64,000 nucleotides of DNA, from NCBI GenBank assembly GCA_016708435.1, contig JADJFV010000035.1, forward strand, positions 192,001-256,000, read 5' to 3'. The notes beneath the pieces are model-generated. The model saw only the letters and a program-made list of their open reading frames with translations, was not told the origin of the DNA and did no database searches. Shown here one piece after another: positions 7,486 to 60,420 of this stretch (positions within the stretch are counted from its first letter, which is position 1; each line of letters begins with the position of its first letter). The position numbers and the translations under genes are program-made. The stretch comes from Leptospiraceae bacterium (GTDB lineage: Bacteria; Spirochaetota; Leptospiria; Leptospirales; Leptospiraceae).

Positions 7486-8082
7486 CTACGTGTAGAATTC
7501 ATCATCTTCCCAATTTCTTGGATTGTTTGCAATATAATTTCTGACGTTGTATAATTCTATTTCGTCTCTAACAATCCGGTCGTGGAATCGGGGTTGCCAT
7601 TGGAAATTGTTATTCAAGACGCGATGAATCGCGTCTCTACGAGATATTTCGAATGTAACGCGACCCTTATACCAACGAATTATTTTTGATAAAGACAATG
7701 GATTTAATACAGGATTGTTTATCCCTGTAATTCCGCCTTGCTGTAGAGACGCGATTGATCGCGTCTTATTTGAACGCGCAATTTCTGATTCCATCTCGAA
7801 TGATTTTTCCTGTCCTGATAAATATAACAATCCATGAACATGATTTGTCATTACAATGAATTCATCCAATTCTGCATGAGGAAAATGTTTTGGAACTTCA
7901 GACTAGATATTTTTTGCAATCAATCCCATTTCCGATAACACCATTTCCCCATTCTCAATCTCCCCAAAAAAATGCTCTCTATCCTTCGCGCATATGGTTA
8001 TGAAATAATATCCATTATCCGCATAATCCCAACCTTCTCTTCGTGTTGATTCGATTCTGTATTTATTTTGGAATAATGTCAT
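7486..8082 (-). pseudogene. REP-associated tyrosine transposase (RAYT, IS200/IS605-like Y1 transposase) interrupted by an in-frame amber codon
   Basis: N-terminal piece MTLFQNKYRIESTRREGWDYADNGYYFITICAKDREHFFGE... (8082..7906), TAG at 7903-7905, then the same frame continues SEVPKHFPHAELDEFIVMTNHVHGLL ... WQPRFHDRIVRDEIELYNVRNYIANNP (7902..7486); HuH motif HVH and C-terminal RAYT signature present. Confidence 0.6.
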
Positions 8083-12969: not shown

Positions 12970-13929
12970 TTGTCCGATAAAATAAGGATGAGTAGAAAAA
13001 AGAATCTGACATCCAGTGAACAAATCATTTTAGCGATTGAGTTTTTGAGTCTAGCTGATGAATATATATTTCGAAAGAAAGATTTAAATTCCCTTTCTTT
13101 GGCAGAATTACTCGATGAACTTCAAGACGCCGAGAAGGAAGGCAAAGAATCGGATTGGGGTCTTGATAGAAGGTTTCGACTGTATACAGGAAAGTTAAAG
13201 AAAATCGGTGTTAGTCTAAACTTGAAATCGAAAAAAATAGAATTTGAAAATAAAAATATTCCATTTAAAATTATTTCTACTTATGTAAAATTCTTTTGTG
13301 AGGATTACAACGAACAACACCTTCGTATATTTTTTAAATCAAAAAAAGAAGATTTCTATGAAGTATTGCGGTTATTTGTATTTATTCGATATGCTATAAA
13401 GTATTCACTTGTAATTGAATTAGAATTCGCTAAGTCTATGAATTGGCAGAAATCGATTCGGCGGATAATTCCTAGATACCTTATCTCTAAGAATCAATTT
13501 TTAGATGTTGTGGTAACAGATTTAAAAGATAAACGAGGTAAGTGGTTCTCACTTGTAAATATTATTTCATTAAAAAATGATTTACTCTCTGCCTATAAAA
13601 AAAGGAAAAAGAGTAATATTCCTTTTGATCGAGTTAGCTTTGAAGCTTCCCCGGAAAGTCAGTTTTATTGGGTGACTGTCGTATATACCGTTCAATTCAA
13701 TAGTTATTCCTTTGTTCATTTTTCTACTACGAATGAAATCGAATACAAAGTAATTAACAACGATAATCCACTTGCTATCATTGTAGAAATTTCGTGTAAT
13801 GATGTTTTCTTGATTCAAAGGATTCTGTTTAACTACGGAATTTATGTAAAACTTTTAAGTCCGGCATCTGCGGTTCTTGATTTTAAAAATAAAATTTCTG
13901 CTTTAGGGAAACATTATGAATACTTATGA
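12970..13929 (+). CDS. possible WYL-domain transcriptional regulator (BrxR/CapW-like architecture)
   Basis: 319 aa; central RRIIPRYLISKNQFLDVVVTDLKDKRGKWFSLVNIISL resembles a WYL core; C-terminal GIYVKLLSPASAV resembles the WCX V-V-LeP motif; assignment by pattern recall only. Confidence 0.35.
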   Translation: MSDKIRMSRKKNLTSSEQIILAIEFLSLADEYIFRKKDLNSLSLAELLDELQDAEKEGKESDWGLDRRFRLYTGKLKKIGVSLNLKSKKIEFENKNIPFKIISTYVKFFCEDYNEQHLRIFFKSKKEDFYEVLRLFVFIRYAIKYSLVIELEFAKSMNWQKSIRRIIPRYLISKNQFLDVVVTDLKDKRGKWFSLVNIISLKNDLLSAYKKRKKSNIPFDRVSFEASPESQFYWVTVVYTVQFNSYSFVHFSTTNEIEYKVINNDNPLAIIVEISCNDVFLIQRILFNYGIYVKLLSPASAVLDFKNKISALGKHYEYL

Positions 13930-13952
13930 AGACGCGATGAATCGCGTCTCTA
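13929..13952. repeat. REP-like palindrome agacgcgatgaatcgcgtctctacg
   Basis: Same palindrome as the two copies inside the RAYT coding region (7617-7640, 7745-7768). Confidence 0.55.
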
Positions 13953-14564
13953 CGGTTTCGTATTTTTCACAACCCACTCTCCCTACTAATATACCGGATA
14001 CTATCTATTAACTCCTGCGTGATGGAAATTCTTCTTGATTCTAAGGAGTCGAAGAGGAAGGAAACAAAAGTTGTATTAGGTTTTTCTCCGAAGGATTTTA
14101 CATGGTCTAAGTATAATTTTTTGCACTTCGCCACGTCTCTGTTAGCCACATCGGTTTCGATGCTGGTATCATTTCTTTTTTCTATTAAAGCTTGCACGAA
14201 TTTCTCCTTTCTTATGCACGAGAAACATTTCTAGAGGATGAATTTCTGAACTGTTTTCTGTTTATGAAATGATTCTATACCAAGGGCAGGACAAGATGCG
14301 GAAAATGTTTTTCCGATTTGGTAATTTCTTTTAGGAGGGGGAAATTTTTTTACTTTCTTTTACTTACCGTTTTATTACCGATACATCAAGGATAGTATCA
14401 AACATAGTTTCAAGAATAGTATCAAAGATACTACTTTTAATTCTATGACTATCTTTGATACTATGGATGTCAGTTTCTTTGATTCTATACTTGAGATATA
14501 GACAACTTAACGGCTTCTTAATTTCTACTAGAGCTTTGGACTTGTTTGATTAGAGACAGGCGGA

Positions 14565-14731
14565 CAATGTCATTCAGTTAAGTGCCATTTACCCCAGTCA
14601 CCTCGAACTGCTTAATCGTGAGAGGTCTAACCGGCATACGTCGTATAAGATTAACCAATACAATGTTTGAGAAATAGATTTCTCACATTCGTTCGAAATG
14701 ACCGTATAATTTCCTTAACTTAATGACTTTG
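14565..14731. repeat. TIR-bounded MITE-like element sharing TIR CAATGTCATT(C/A)AG with the CACGAAG family but with a different core
   Basis: caatgtcattcagttaag ... cttaacttaatgac termini; core cacctcgaactgcttaatcgtgagaggtctaaccggca has inverted homologues at 2478-2530 and partial ones at 29925-30040. Confidence 0.45.
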
Positions 14732-14751
14732 CCCGATATCGTTCAAAGTCA

Positions 14752-16035
14752 TTAAACATTCAAAATTATCCCTTCTATTACTTCAAATATTTTACCCAGG
14801 GAGCTTTGGCTGATTGTATACGGGGGAGCGACATACACTGTGTTACCCAGTGGGCGAATCATGACGCCTCTTTCGAGAGAGTAGGCTTTTATCTTTTTAG
14901 AAATAGGATTCAGGTAATCAGACTTACCCTCTAGTTCAAAAGCACAGACCGCTCCGAGAGTTCGGTCGTTTATCATGCGCTCTCCGTGTTTTTGTTTTAG
15001 GAGGGACATTCTTTCTTTTAGCTCTGCTTCCAAGCGGATAACATCGTTTAGGCGGTCTTCTCTTTCATACAATTCTAAAGAAGCAAGACCTGCCGCACAA
15101 GCGGAAGGATTTCCTGTCATCGTGTGACCGTGGTAGAATGCTTTGTTTGCGTCCTCTGAATAAAATCCTTCGTAGATTCTTTCTGATACAAGTGTAGCGG
15201 CTAATGGCATTACCCCACCTGTGAGACCCTTTGCGAGAGTGATGAAGTCAGGCTTGATACTCGCATGCTCATAGGCAAAATTCTTAGCTGTTCTCCCAAA
15301 CCCTGTAAAGATTTCATCTAGAATGAGAAGCATATTGTATTTATCACAAAGGCTTCTTAGTTTACTTAAAATTTCTTTTTTGTAAAACTTCATTCCTTCT
15401 GCCCCCTGGATTAAGGGCTCGATGATGATCGCTGCCGTAGTATCAGAATTAGCCGCTAGATATTCTTCTAGAGGAGCGAGACATTCCTCTTTGCAAGAAG
15501 AAGGATTTTTTCCAATTGGACAGTTATTGCAATCGGGAGAAGGAAATTCAGGGGAATGAAAAAGTAGATTTTTAAAGCTTGCGTTAAATGTTGATTTGCC
15601 CGCTACTGACATTGCCCCGATTGTATCTCCGTGGTAGCAATGACTAAAGTGTAAAATTTTTTCCTTTTTAGTTTCGCCTCTGTTTTGAAAGTATTGGGTT
15701 GCCATTTTAATCGCTATATCTATGGCACAGGAGCCGTTATCCGAATAGAATACAGCTTTAAAAACATTCTGATTCAATTGAATTAATTTCTCTGCAAGTA
15801 GTTCAGCGTTTACATTTGTGTAACCCGCAAGTAAGACATGATCTAAGTTAGATATACTTTCTTTTACTTTTTCGATTATGTAAGGATGATTGTGACCGTG
15901 AATGCTAATCCACCAGGAAGAAACTGCGTCGATGTAAGAATTTCCTTTTTCATCGTATAGAAATTCTCCTTTTGCCCGGACAACCTTGAGAGGATCGGGT
16001 TGTCCTTTTAAAATTGTATAAGGATGCCAGATCAC
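14752..16035 (-). CDS. bioA: adenosylmethionine-8-amino-7-oxononanoate aminotransferase
   Basis: Class III aminotransferase; SSWWISIHGHNHP motif as in BioA; adjacent to bioD. Confidence 0.85.
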   Translation of the reverse strand: MIWHPYTILKGQPDPLKVVRAKGEFLYDEKGNSYIDAVSSWWISIHGHNHPYIIEKVKESISNLDHVLLAGYTNVNAELLAEKLIQLNQNVFKAVFYSDNGSCAIDIAIKMATQYFQNRGETKKEKILHFSHCYHGDTIGAMSVAGKSTFNASFKNLLFHSPEFPSPDCNNCPIGKNPSSCKEECLAPLEEYLAANSDTTAAIIIEPLIQGAEGMKFYKKEILSKLRSLCDKYNMLLILDEIFTGFGRTAKNFAYEHASIKPDFITLAKGLTGGVMPLAATLVSERIYEGFYSEDANKAFYHGHTMTGNPSACAAGLASLELYEREDRLNDVIRLEAELKERMSLLKQKHGERMINDRTLGAVCAFELEGKSDYLNPISKKIKAYSLERGVMIRPLGNTVYVAPPYTISQSSLGKIFEVIEGIILNV

Positions 16036-35693: not shown

Positions 35694-35895
35694 AAATTAC
35701 CATTAAAGAACAAAAGAAAAACAAAAATAGAACACTTGGAAATAAATTTCAACCAATTTAATTATAAATATCAATGCAATTTACAATCAATCCTCTATTT
35801 ACTCTTTAAAAACTTAGGTTTAATCCTCCTTTTATTATCGACATTTCAGAAATGAGATTATATACAAGATAGAATAATTTACCCACGAATTCGCC

Positions 35896-36037
35896 CAATG
35901 TCATTAAGATAAGAGTTTTTCACCACGAAGAGCACGAAGTTCACGAAGGGGTTTATGATGGAATCCTTTTTTTCTTCGTGTTCTTCGTGCCCTTCGTGGT
36001 GAATTCTTTTTTCTTTTATCTTAACTTAATGACATTG
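35896..36037. mobile_element. MITE-like hairpin element, CACGAAG-heptamer family, copy A
   Basis: TIRs caatgtcattaagataag / cttatcttaa(ctta)atgacattg; arms caccacgaagagcacgaagttcacgaagggg and cttcgtgttcttcgtgcccttcgtggtg; flanked by direct repeat cacgaattcgcc on both sides. Confidence 0.7.
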
Positions 36038-36216
36038 CACGAATTCGCCTGGCGTCTTTGCAGTGAGACATAAGGAAGAGTGGAAAGCTCCAGACTCTCA
36101 CTTGAATTTTCGATTTTTCTAAATAGAATGTCAGAAGGAATTTCTTTGTTGATAGGCTTTCTAGTGACTAATAATTCCAAATCTTCTTCGAACGATAAAA
36201 ATTATCTCTAAATGAT

Positions 36217-40687: not shown

Positions 40688-41350
40688 AGTATTCAGTATG
40701 TTTAGCTATTATTAACATATGTCAACTATTAATTTGATTTTTTTTTCTAGGAATTTACCGGATCTTCTTTAATCCAAAAAATCTGATTAAATGTATTCGT
40801 TCTAAATTCAAGGATTAGAACATAAGGACTAATTGTCTGCAAACAATAAAAGGCTTACTTGCTGTGTAAGAAATTTTCATTGAACAATGATTATCTATCA
40901 TAATAGAGGATTGCCTTCGTTTTCTGTTGAAATTAGATACAAAAAACCTTATTACCATCATTCAATATTACACATTGATAAGCTCTCGCGAAGGTTAACT
41001 TTGAGAGAGCATTTGGAAGAAAAAAGAATAGTGAAGGAAAACAAAAAATAGTCAATCCCAACAACATCGAGGATGTTTTTAAAAATCCCGATTTTTTACC
41101 CCTACCCAATACCTACCTTCCGATACATCAAAGACACTATCTATGATACTATCAAGGATACTATCAAAAATACTGTTTTCGCCTTTTTGAGTATGTTTGA
41201 TAGAAGACCTGACAGTGTAATTGATAGTAACATAGATGCATCGTCAATAAGAATCATCCAGAAGCTAAAAACACGGATAACCTTAAAATCCCAAACCTTC
41301 TATCGGTGTCCATCGGTGGTAATCTTTGAAAGTTTTCTCTAACCTGCTAG

Positions 41351-41493
41351 CAATGTCATTAAGTTAAGAAAAACCAAGAAAAATTTAACCACGAAGGGCA
41401 CGAAGAACGCGAAGAAAAGACAGGATTTCTTCATAAACCCCTTCGTGAACTTCGTGCTCTTCGTGGTGAAAAATTCTTATCTTAATGACATTG
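41351..41493. mobile_element. MITE-like hairpin element, CACGAAG family, copy B (inverted relative to copy A)
   Basis: caatgtcattaagttaag ... cttatcttaatgacattg; flanking direct repeats aacctgctag / aacgtgctag. Confidence 0.7.
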
Positions 41494-41601
41494 AACGTGC
41501 TAGCATCCGACACACTATTATTACCTAACAGGAAAAAGAGTGGAATTTATTTACAACAAATGATTTATTGAGTCGATTGGACATAATGGGGAATAATTGA
41601 A

Positions 41602-51802: not shown

Positions 51803-52468
51803 TTAATAAAACTCACCAAGATATTTCTTTTCAAGTGTTTTAAAATCTTCTGCTTCGACTACTTTGGAAGATTCTAGCTTTCCTTTAGTCAAAATTTGAA
51901 AGATCATCTTAGAGCCAACTTCTTTAGAGACTACACTTACTTCTTCCAATTTGCCTTTATTATCTTTGAAAATCTTACCCGGTAGAGAGCGAAGAACTAC
52001 AAACTTTTCAATATGCTCTTTATTTACGAGTTCTATGTTCAAGCGTTTTCCAAAATTCAGATAAGTAAGAGTCAATGAATCACTGTCTTTTTGGAAATTC
52101 TTTACATAGATTCCATCTTTATCGAATTCATTGAGTCCAATTAAATTATTATCCGTCCAGTATTCGATTAAGTTAAATACGAGTGCATCAGAGAATAATA
52201 CGACATAGACAGGAAATATAAAATAAACATAAGCAACTACAGTTCTGAGTGTTTTTCCAAAGAAACCTTCGCCGCCTAACGTTTCATTGAATGCATATGC
52301 CTTTCGGGTCAATGCAAATTTACCGAAACAATTTGCAGTGGATGTGAATGTAAAAAGAGTGATGAGTAATAATAACGTTAGCCGTTTAATGTTCTTGGTC
52401 ATGATTGTATTCCTTGTTGTAGTATCGAAAAAAGTTGGCACTTTAAATGATGTCACCCAGATTGTCAT
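51803..52468 (-). CDS. small membrane protein, paralogue of 52707..53312 (possibly DUF3332-like)
   Basis: Shares ANCFGKFALTRK ... NLIEYWTD ... LTYLNFG ... FVVLRS ... TKGKLESSKV blocks with its neighbour. Confidence 0.5.
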   Translation of the reverse strand: MTIWVTSFKVPTFFDTTTRNTIMTKNIKRLTLLLLITLFTFTSTANCFGKFALTRKAYAFNETLGGEGFFGKTLRTVVAYVYFIFPVYVVLFSDALVFNLIEYWTDNNLIGLNEFDKDGIYVKNFQKDSDSLTLTYLNFGKRLNIELVNKEHIEKFVVLRSLPGKIFKDNKGKLEEVSVVSKEVGSKMIFQILTKGKLESSKVVEAEDFKTLEKKYLGEFY

Positions 52469-52496
52469 TCCCAGAATCTCTGTCCCCGAAATCGCT

Positions 52497-52632
52497 CAAT
52501 GCTGCATAATTAAGAATTTTTCACCACGAAGGAAACGAAGATCACGAAGGAGTTTATTATAAAACTCTATCTTTTCTTCGCGTTCTTCGTGCCCTTCGTG
52601 GTTACTCTCTTCTTGGTTTTCCGACAGCATTG
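52497..52632. mobile_element. MITE-like hairpin element, CACGAAG family, copy C (variant TIR caatgctg...cagcattg)
   Basis: Arms caccacgaaggaaacgaagatcacgaagg / cttcgcgttcttcgtgcccttcgtgg; flanking gaaatcgct / gacatcgct. Confidence 0.6.
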
Positions 52633-52706
52633 GACATCGCTTGGAGGCAGTGTGTGATTCAAAAAGCTAACTCACCATGACATCATTTATAAAGCTAAAA
52701 AATTTA

Positions 52707-53312
52707 TTAGTAAATTTCGCCAGCGTATTTTTGTTCTAGTTGTTTGTAATCTTTTACTTCGATTACTTTGGATGATTCTAACTTGCCTTTTGTTGCCATA
52801 CGTAAAATCATTTTAGAACCAATGTTTTTAGAATCGACTGTAATCTCTTCTAGCTTATCATCTGTTTCTTTAAAGAATTTTCCTGGCTCAGATCTAAGAA
52901 CCACAAACTGATCTGATTTTCCGTTTTTGGAAACATCGATTACAAGTTTTTGTCCAAAGTTTAGGTAGGTTAGTTTTAATGACTCTCCTTCTTTTTGGAA
53001 ACTCTTTACATATTTGCCTTCTTTATTGTATTCGTTTAGTCCGAGTGGATTTGAATCTGTCCAGAATTCAATCAAGTTCAAGATAACTACGTCAATAAAC
53101 CAAACGATACCTGCAATGATTGGAATAAAGAAATAAACATACATAAGAATTGTTTTAACAATCTTACCTGCCCAATCATTTCCCATAAGCCCTTCATTTA
53201 ATCCATAGACTTTTCTAGTTAACGCAAATTTTCCAAAGCAATTTGCAAACGAAGTCAAGCTCACTCCTACAATTAAAAGTAATAGAGTAAGTTTTTTAAA
53301 CAATTTATTCAT
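52707..53312 (-). CDS. small membrane protein, paralogue of 51803..52468
   Basis: See paralogue; N-terminal TM plus a second hydrophobic segment. Confidence 0.55.
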   Translation of the reverse strand: MNKLFKKLTLLLLIVGVSLTSFANCFGKFALTRKVYGLNEGLMGNDWAGKIVKTILMYVYFFIPIIAGIVWFIDVVILNLIEFWTDSNPLGLNEYNKEGKYVKSFQKEGESLKLTYLNFGQKLVIDVSKNGKSDQFVVLRSEPGKFFKETDDKLEEITVDSKNIGSKMILRMATKGKLESSKVIEVKDYKQLEQKYAGEIY

Positions 53313-56370: not shown

Positions 56371-56389
56371 GGTGTATCGGTTGTAAGAA

Positions 56390-56529
56390 TTTAACACGCT
56401 TACGCTAAAGCGCACAAAGTAAAAAGCCACAAAGGGCACTAAGGACTTAGTGTTGGAAAAAGAAACTTTGTGAGCCTTGTGAAATCCTTTGTGTTCTTAG
56501 TTTTAAAAAAAGTGGAATAAAAGATTCGG
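56390..56529. repeat. hairpin element, CACAAAG family, copy 1
   Basis: About 140 bp, about 93 percent identical to 58068-58207; arms gcgcacaaagtaaaaagccacaaagggcac / ctttgtgagccttgtgaaatcctttgtgttc. Confidence 0.65.
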
Positions 56530-56596
56530 AGACAAGTTTCGGAAGTCATGGAGCGATAATTCTTTTAGTTTACAAAATAGTGTTATCCGATTACAA

Positions 56597-58037: not shown

Positions 58038-58067
58038 GTTTAGCCTGAGCTTGAAAATAGAAAAAGA

Positions 58068-58207
58068 TTTTAACACGCTTACGCTAAAGCACACAAAGTA
58101 AAAATCCACAAAGGGCACTAAGAGCTTGGTGTAAGAAAAAGAAACTTTGTGAGCCTTGTGAAATCCTTTGTGTTCTTAGTGGTATAAAAAGTGGAATAAG
58201 ATATTCG
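58068..58207. repeat. hairpin element, CACAAAG family, copy 2 (direct orientation relative to copy 1)
   Basis: ttaacacgcttacgctaaagcacacaaagtaaaaatccacaaagggcac...ctttgtgagccttgtgaaatcctttgtgttcttag. Confidence 0.65.
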
Positions 58208-58242
58208 GGTAATTTTGTATTAGCTGCTAAATGGAAAATCTT

Positions 58243-60243: not shown

Positions 60244-60276
60244 TGTTGTTAGTACCTAGTGGAAGGCTTGCTATCT

Positions 60277-60420
60277 AATGCTGTAAACTTAAGATTTTTT
60301 AACCACGAAGGACACGAAGATCACGAAGGGATTTTGTAATGAGATCCTGTCTTTTCTTCGCGTTCTTCGTGCCCTTCATGGTTAATTCTTTTTTTCTTTT
60401 CCTTAAGTCAACAGCATTAG
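60277..60420. mobile_element. MITE-like hairpin element, CACGAAG family, copy D (variant TIR taatgctg...cagcatta)
   Basis: aaccacgaaggacacgaagatcacgaaggg / cttcgcgttcttcgtgcccttcatgg; flanking gcttgctatc / gcattcgctac. Confidence 0.6.

Follow-up and report, generated by a model that had tools for sequence, protein, structure and literature searches.

A composite MITE-like element in a Leptospiraceae genome, probably made of IS1675-type ends and an ORF-less GxxExxY-cassette hairpin

Insertion sequences of the IS4 family generate target duplications of 9-12 bp. In IS1675 of Lactococcus lactis, as it is found in plasmid pB26A, the ends CAATGTCATTAAGTTAAGGAAAACAG are accompanied by a 10-bp duplication, GAGTATACCC. 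Related ends can reportedly also carry foreign DNA, as in MIC231, the IS231-derived mobile insertion cassettes that De Palmenaer, Vermeiren and Mahillon are said to have described in 2004. The ends of Mu, Tn7 and IS21 carry several subterminal transposase-binding repeats. A further relevant system is a protein family, GxxExxY (PF13366/TIGR04256), which has more than 8000 relatives. In a 2012 survey of PD-(D/E)XK proteins, the function of PF13366 was given as unknown and multiple transfers between divisions were reported (PMC3424549).

We analyzed a stretch of 64,000 nucleotides from a Leptospiraceae bacterium (GenBank assembly GCA_016708435.1, contig JADJFV010000035.1, positions 192,001 to 256,000), referred to as the window, in which a short repeat with terminal inverted repeats (TIRs) and target-site duplications (TSDs) occurs in four copies:

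Copy A, 35896-36037, + strand: element with TIRs at 35896-35915 and 36018-36037
Heptamer arrays of copy A, 35922-35949 and 35974-36001
TSD of copy A, 35884-35895 and 36038-36049: 12 bp, CACGAATTCGCC
Copy B, 41351-41493, - strand: element, inverted relative to A
TSD of copy B, 41341-41350 (AACCTGCTAG) and 41494-41503 (AACGTGCTAG): 10 bp
Copy C, 52497-52632, + strand: element with the variant TIR CAATGCTG...CAGCATTG
TSD of copy C, 52488-52496 (GAAATCGCT) and 52633-52641 (GACATCGCT): 9 bp
Copy D, 60276-60419, + strand: element with the variant TIR TAATGCTGTAAACTTAAG...CTTAAGTCAACAGCATTA, without a convincing TSD

Like the MIC231 cassettes and bacterial MITEs in general, these elements are small and intergenic, with TIRs and TSDs, and, as in MIC231, they appear to consist of IS4-family ends around a foreign passenger that would be mobilized in trans. 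Unlike in MIC231, the passenger is not a gene but a 100-bp non-coding hairpin, probably left over from a different putative selfish unit.

The four copies are located within 25 kb and in both orientations, and every one of them is intergenic and free of ORFs. Their length of 136-144 bp agrees with the size of about 140 bp given in an initial annotation of the window, which had also placed A, B and C correctly; the ends of D were one base off, the true ones being 60276-60419. Identity is highest between A and B (91%) and amounts to 76-80% for the remaining pairs, and a full-length alignment of all four copies has a mean column identity of 80%. Each copy folds into a single long hairpin with a loop of 25-27 nt; the predicted energies lie between -54 and -68 kcal/mol, with z scores from -8 to -14 relative to shuffled sequences. 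The heptamer CACGAAG is found 23 times in the window compared to an expectation of 3.65, and 19 of these 23 occurrences are inside the copies. As annotated, arrays of this heptamer are present on both arms of the hairpins, but three perfect units on every arm are not: degenerate units occur in copies B, C and D (CGCGAAG), in C (AACGAAG) and in D (CATGAAG). The spacing, reported as roughly 10 bp, had to be corrected to a period of 9 nt, consisting of the seven bases and a 2-nt spacer; a pattern with a 10-nt period has no match in the window, while one with a 9-nt period has 20 matches versus 0.18 expected. Copy C lies between two paralogous DUF3332 genes (51803-52468 and 52707-53312), which share a 158-nt repeat with 71% identity.

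The TIRs agree with the earlier description: A and B carry CAATGTCATTAAG(A/T)TAAG, whereas C and D carry YAATGCTG, which extends to ...TTAAG. The two ends pair at 18 of 19 bases in A, at 19 of 20 in B, over 8 bp plus an inner TTAAG-type pairing in C, and over 8 + 7 bp in D. A and B show the same asymmetry, with GATAAG on the hairpin side and GTTAAG on the T-rich side, indicating that both are copies of one master. The TIR also provides a weak outward-facing -35-like hexamer, ATGACA, as is seen at many IS ends (9 of 12 promoter matches; 35876-35904, minus strand).

All four copies had been annotated with a flanking direct repeat. Such a repeat is present at A (12/12 positions), B (9/10) and C (8/9), but can be written for D only by allowing indels. 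For two randomly chosen positions, the probability of a direct repeat of 9 bp or more with no more than one mismatch is 7.8e-4, and that of a 12-bp repeat 3.5e-5; the repeats flanking A, B and C each have p<1e-3. To compare strains, sister contigs were fetched by identical flanking proteins; sister assemblies are GCA_016718635.1, GCA_016720625.1, GCA_016703885.1 and GCA_018057905.1. The comparison of filled and empty sites, which had been suggested together with the annotation, was informative at B: GCA_016718635.1 (loci L187/L196) and loci L190 and L195 contain a single 10-bp AACTTACTAG. The empty site reads ...ttttctctAACTTACTAGcatctagcac..., and the window reads ...ttttctctAACCTGCTAG[143 bp]AACGTGCTAGcatccgacac..., with the layout AACCTGCTAG-[element]-AACGTGCTAG. 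At the empty site the alignments of the left and the right flank overlap by 10 bp, so that the difference between both alleles amounts to the element plus one 10-bp copy of the target. The single target copy demonstrates that the flanking repeat is a true TSD and that the insertion is polymorphic. Together with the TSDs, the empty B site bears out the original proposal of transposase-mediated insertion rather than slippage. The copies are therefore MITE-like: short, ORF-less and dispersed, with TIRs and a TSD that is single at the empty site, copy D being the exception with respect to the TSD.

Every sister genome examined also has copies A, C and D; C, for instance, is found in L198 and L199, and D in L198-L201. 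Copy A of GCA_016718635.1 has two left-arm units compared to three in the window, and the same holds true for copy D in L200 and L201. Between strains, A and D thus differ by exactly 9 nt, one left-arm unit, indicating that slippage alters the number of units but did not create the copies. The arrays at 35922-35949 and 60302-60329 behave as a small VNTR (three versus two units; L196, L200, L201). In L121, L122 and L188-L195, short-read contigs break off within the element, as expected of a genome-wide repeat.

The initial annotation had called for an insertion sequence with matching TIRs, and such elements were found in other organisms, where CAATGTCATTAAGTTAAG forms the end of IS4-family elements. 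The outermost 18-20 bp of both A and B coincide exactly with the termini of IS1675 and related IS4-family elements, the match to IS1675 and to an IS at locus L143 extending over 19-24 nt, and A and B match the IS1675-type terminus CAATGTCATTAAGTTAAG at 100% over 19-20 nt; C and D do not match it. A scan of viral contigs for CAATGTCATTAAGNTAAG yielded 64 loci. Among them are 1.6-kb inverted pairs enclosing a 435-aa DDE transposase, pairs about 190 bp apart that represent MITEs of 210 bp, and an end-to-end mini-element of 29 bp (L152). The L143 transposase belongs to PF01609, scores 164 bits with the model NF033592 "IS4 family" (cut-off 115) and is 41.6% identical to the transposase of L. lactis IS1675. 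Duplications at the reference elements measure 9 bp (L143) or 10 bp (L168, L152 and IS1675), and the TSD lengths of 12, 10 and 9 bp in the window fit the IS4-group range. A and B thus share with IS1675 the termini and duplications of 9-12 bp, and IS1675 ends also occur on short ORF-less derivatives elsewhere. In contrast to IS1675, A-D contain no transposase gene and have nothing in common with it past the first ~24 nt, and the ends of C and D have diverged.

No IS1675-like transposase was found in the window, in line with the annotation, which had noted the lack of a cognate enzyme there. No IS with C/D-type ends was identified, 79 single matches in viral contigs being at chance level. The combination of TIR and hairpin was absent from the viral contigs and plasmids searched, and in a BLAST search of plasmids neither the element nor the L143 IS had a DNA match. 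At one of the loci studied (L153, 4806-6892), a 584-aa IscB-like ORF (RRXRR + HNH) lies between IS1675-type ends with an imperfect flanking repeat of about 10 bp; this looks like an IS4-type cassette with an OMEGA nuclease as passenger.

The window contains one more pair of such ends, and also a second family of heptamer hairpins:

Element G, 14565-14731, no strand assigned: IS1675-type TIRs with one mismatch each
Element E, 56381-56556, + strand: second heptamer-hairpin family, CACAAAG/CACTAAG units, no IS4-type TIRs
Element F, 58064-58208, + strand: 91% identical to E over 145 nt

Element G has an unrelated interior of 130 nt and no TSD. Since the same ends here surround unrelated DNA, the TIRs carry different passengers in this genome. 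A lone additional TIR (14744-14756) faces element G at a distance of 12 bp, which suggests adjacent or nested insertions. Element G is also present in GCA_016718635.1 (L364), and the region differs in GCA_020051655.1 (L370). A 106-nt repeat with a periodic GATACTATCAAAGATACT-like motif (14378-14483 and 41120-41225, 71% identical) has one copy upstream of element G and another upstream of copy B, each time at a distance of ~100-200 nt. In the E/F family the units are irregularly spaced, and neither a clear TSD nor a TIR was seen. Element E is missing from L201 and L203, which have 5 nt (agggt) instead, and is present in L198-L200 and L202. No HIP1 site was found in the window, which argues against a cyanobacterial origin.

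The interior of copies A-D has a far wider distribution than their ends. We scanned 185,579 species genomes for the 24-base arm motif ACCACGAAGNNNACGAAGNNCACGAAGG; among the matches listed, the motif ACCACGAAGnnCACGAAGnnCACGAAGG together with an inverted partner was found at no fewer than 120 genome loci in more than 12 phyla. These matches include Acidobacteriota, Planctomycetota, Verrucomicrobiota, Lentisphaerota, Desulfobacterota, Binatia and Methylomirabilota as well as Nitrospirota, Chloroflexota, Gemmatimonadota, Alpha-, Gamma- and Zetaproteobacteria and others, and their loci range from 38 to 75% GC. Again among the matches listed, 87 of 135 arms have an inverted partner within 700 nt, 77 of the 135 belong to ORF-less derivatives, and the loops are shorter than 60 nt in 43 cases and 60-200 nt long in 34. 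The inverted repeat stops 0-5 nt outside ACC...GGT. Neither IS ends nor duplications were found around the ACCACGAAGnnCACGAAGnnCACGAAGG loci of other phyla, where TSDs at the hairpins did not exceed shuffled controls. The exact arm motif is also present in 57 IMG/VR stretches (L392-L448). Several viral contigs of 30-50 kb carry up to about seven arm motifs, often co-oriented and 1.5-4 kb apart; the dense arrays in some viral contigs were viewed with a loose pattern, which proved too noisy for interpretation.

Loops of about 380-450 nt hold a GxxExxY gene (TIGR04256, E = 1e-44 and 6e-35). Five loci have the full ORF in the loop (L016, L047, L054, L099 and L104), about six more contain remnants, and shorter loops often retain N- or C-terminal fragments of the gene. 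For the reverse test, 80 metagenomic GxxExxY genes (PF13366, PD-(D/E)XK fold) were picked by protein similarity alone. Using a strict pattern, forward array before the start and reverse array after the stop, 49 of these 80 genes are directly bracketed; 74 have at least one adjacent array and six have none, against a background of one array per 3.4 kb in the same loci. The heptamer is CACGAAG at 20 genes, CACAGAG at 18, CACGGAG at 14 and CGCAGAG at seven, with several rarer types, and its type tracks the relatedness of the proteins (41 of 60 nearest neighbors agree, compared to 12 expected). Conversely, 37 of 51 bracketed units are confirmed GxxExxY genes, and the other units of matching size are GxxExxY loci missed by the ORF picker; no other cargo was seen in these 51 units. 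There is no adjoining rRNA gene at 20 cassettes inspected for insertion into rRNA genes.

Two cases illustrate the genomic setting of these cassettes. The Candidatus Jettenia cassette (CP129467.1; L377, 2460-2910) has CACGAAG arms and is located between an rmlA-like NTP_transferase gene and an rmlC-like dTDP-sugar isomerase gene, co-oriented with its neighbors and at one fixed site in all Jettenia assemblies examined. An identical GxxExxY protein, P0037, together with its downstream 103-aa neighbor, is joined to two unrelated upstream sequences (L382/L384 versus L388/L390). The breakpoint lies within the left array, of which three units are left in one case and two in the other, and only this side varies, which is suggestive of cassette mobility. 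In the literature searched, no description of heptamer strings or arrays around GxxExxY genes was found, an absence that is no proof of novelty; the link between cassette and hairpin may be the part of this finding that is new.

As a reference for the window hairpins we used the cassette at L233 (metagenome contig Ga0209726_10071714, 42% GC), from which the ORF was removed before alignment. A-D align with this collapsed cassette along their whole interior, with a mean column identity of 72% over 139 columns. Common to all are a run of T ahead of the left arm, three units, the TTTAT that follows this arm, and a T-rich tail, so that the likeness reaches beyond the heptamers, and the right arm CTTCGTGTTCTTCGTGCCCTTCGTGGT is identical in A-D and L233, including its spacers TT and CC. 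The arrays of A-D also fit the general inverted-array pattern of the cassettes: C[AG]CN[AG]AG in two to three or more units with a period of 8-9 nt, ending in (T)CACC / GGTG(A). Unlike the intact cassettes, A-D have no ORF between their arrays, and tblastn detected no GxxExxY gene anywhere in the window. Because their interior aligns with the ORF-removed cassette, we interpret the elements as IS4-type ends plus an ORF-less GxxExxY cassette. Judged from these sequence comparisons, A-D are probably a composite non-autonomous transposon with IS1675-type ends and an ORF-less GxxExxY-cassette hairpin, a reading to which we assign a probability of roughly 0.8.

The layered structure could also be read the other way round, with the hairpin as the active mobile unit that entered a pre-existing TIR-only mini-MITE by GxxExxY-driven homing or recombination, the TIRs being merely its landing site. 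This would account for the existence of TIR-only elements and of elements with other passengers (the 29-bp L152 and element G), for the spread of heptamer hairpins without IS ends in other phyla, and for the differing upstream junctions of the identical GxxExxY protein, which break inside the left array. We nevertheless consider it unlikely, since A-D are built alike and can be aligned from end to end, TIR-proximal spacers included, indicating that TIR and hairpin moved as one unit once formed. Moreover, the polymorphism at B takes out the TIRs, the hairpin and one 10-bp copy of the target together.

Another possibility is that the hairpin is kept as a host RNA or DNA signal, such as a terminator, an mRNA stabilizer, an RNase III site or a small RNA, with mobility being secondary. 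Close relatives that have identical flanking genes lack the element at B. Copies A, C and D are retained in the sister genomes examined. The folds are very stable and all copies are intergenic, but no Rfam family matches them: at gathering and at permissive thresholds, the only matches in the window and 32 related loci were tRNA and, below threshold, generic long-hairpin miRNA models from plants. On one strand, the hairpin is followed by a T-rich tract; for copies A, B and C, however, this strand is the one opposite to the flanking genes, and a terminator scan was negative at A and B. The candidate classes Rfam RNA and intrinsic terminator, a short GC stem followed by a T-run, were rejected for these copies. 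Shine-Dalgarno-like cores are present in the heptamers directly upstream of the ATG of intact cassettes. The spacers are not selected for pairing. Overall, this explanation appears very improbable to us.

That the copies arose through slippage or local amplification of a palindrome, or as REP elements served by the RAYT at 7486-8082, can practically be dismissed: 9-nt units do slip and the window does contain a fragment of a Y1 transposase, but the copies are dispersed over 25 kb in both orientations, their 9-12 bp TSDs and the empty B site indicate DDE transposition, their TIRs are identical to IS4-family ends, and the RAYT ORF is truncated or interrupted and flanked by other repeats. The slippage/REP origin was accordingly ruled out by the empty-site comparison. 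Membership in the REP/RAYT class, with its palindromes of 20-40 bp, GTAG/CGTC tag and intact Y1 transposase, was likewise rejected, because size and sequence differ and the RAYT is fragmentary. Only a C-terminal Y1_Tnp fragment is left of it (ORF 7486-7869), with an in-frame stop before 8082. The initial annotation had associated this gene with another palindrome; it is flanked by different repeats (families D6 and D9). An identical 26-mer palindrome, AAGACGCGATGAATCGCGTCTCTACG, occurs inside the RAYT (7616-7641) and 6.3 kb away (13929-13954).

What the heptamer arrays do can be approached through their spacers. In 51 hairpins, purines make up 82% of the spacer bases when either arm is read on its heptamer strand, and their complementarity between the arms is 33.8%, compared to 36-38% by chance, which argues for mirrored arrays of 9-bp sites rather than arms selected for pairing. 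Protein binding on duplex DNA would therefore fit the arrays better than an RNA stem does, and they are putative binding sites, for which the GxxExxY nuclease itself is the most likely ligand. Within this protein family the residues D...E-x-K are invariant, and an AlphaFold model (pLDDT 94.6) shows a minimal PD-(D/E)XK nuclease core. No solved structure is detectable by sequence; the solved folds nearest to the model are lambda exonuclease, LHK-Exo and Cas4 (TM ~0.5). In intact cassettes the Shine-Dalgarno-like cores directly before the ATG are GAAGG, GGAG and GAGG, and a translational role for the cassette heptamers is also conceivable. The arrays of the window copies are best seen as a passenger. 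The cassettes resemble the ends of Mu, Tn7 and IS21 in having several short direct repeats per end, with the two ends mutually inverted. They differ from them in that the units are just 9 bp apart, in that no TSD accompanies the arrays in other phyla, and in that the linked protein is a 123-aa nuclease fold and not a DDE enzyme.

For the composite transposon, the following course of events may be proposed. The ancestral cassette would have consisted of a 123-aa PD-(D/E)XK nuclease-like gene between inverted arrays of three 7-nt units with a period of 9 nt, abutting the start and stop codons. It presumably came to lie between IS4-type ends, either by insertion into a TIR pair or by capture between TIRs, and its gene was lost. 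This would have left a 140-bp hairpin, which an IS4-type transposase then copied around the genome: a DDE enzyme encoded elsewhere would recognize the ends, and its staggered cut would leave the target duplication of 9-12 bp. Later, the element would have split into the A/B and C/D subfamilies, with both ends changing together, while 9-nt units may have been gained and lost by slippage.

For the Leptospiraceae genome, the element would be a marker of an active or recently active IS4-type transposase; its copies break short-read assemblies and can serve as strain-level markers. For the GxxExxY family, members of PF13366/TIGR04256 are nearly always enclosed by a conserved DNA motif, and bacteria of soil, sediment and wastewater carry this motif also in the form of orphan hairpins that number in the thousands. 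The link between both explains repeats that otherwise resemble unrelated lineage-specific MITEs, and gives a direct hypothesis for the substrate of the family, the heptamer arrays. A wider and more tentative proposal, which we regard as possible but less likely than not, is that GxxExxY cassettes are a so far unrecognized class of selfish unit found across phyla, built around a minimal PD-(D/E)XK nuclease gene, with the inverted triple-heptamer arrays as their own recombination-prone recognition sites and the solo hairpins as defective or empty forms, one relic of which rides on IS4-type ends. If this is true, the relic of one parasite would have been mobilized by another, and the solo hairpin would have escaped its dependence on the GxxExxY system.
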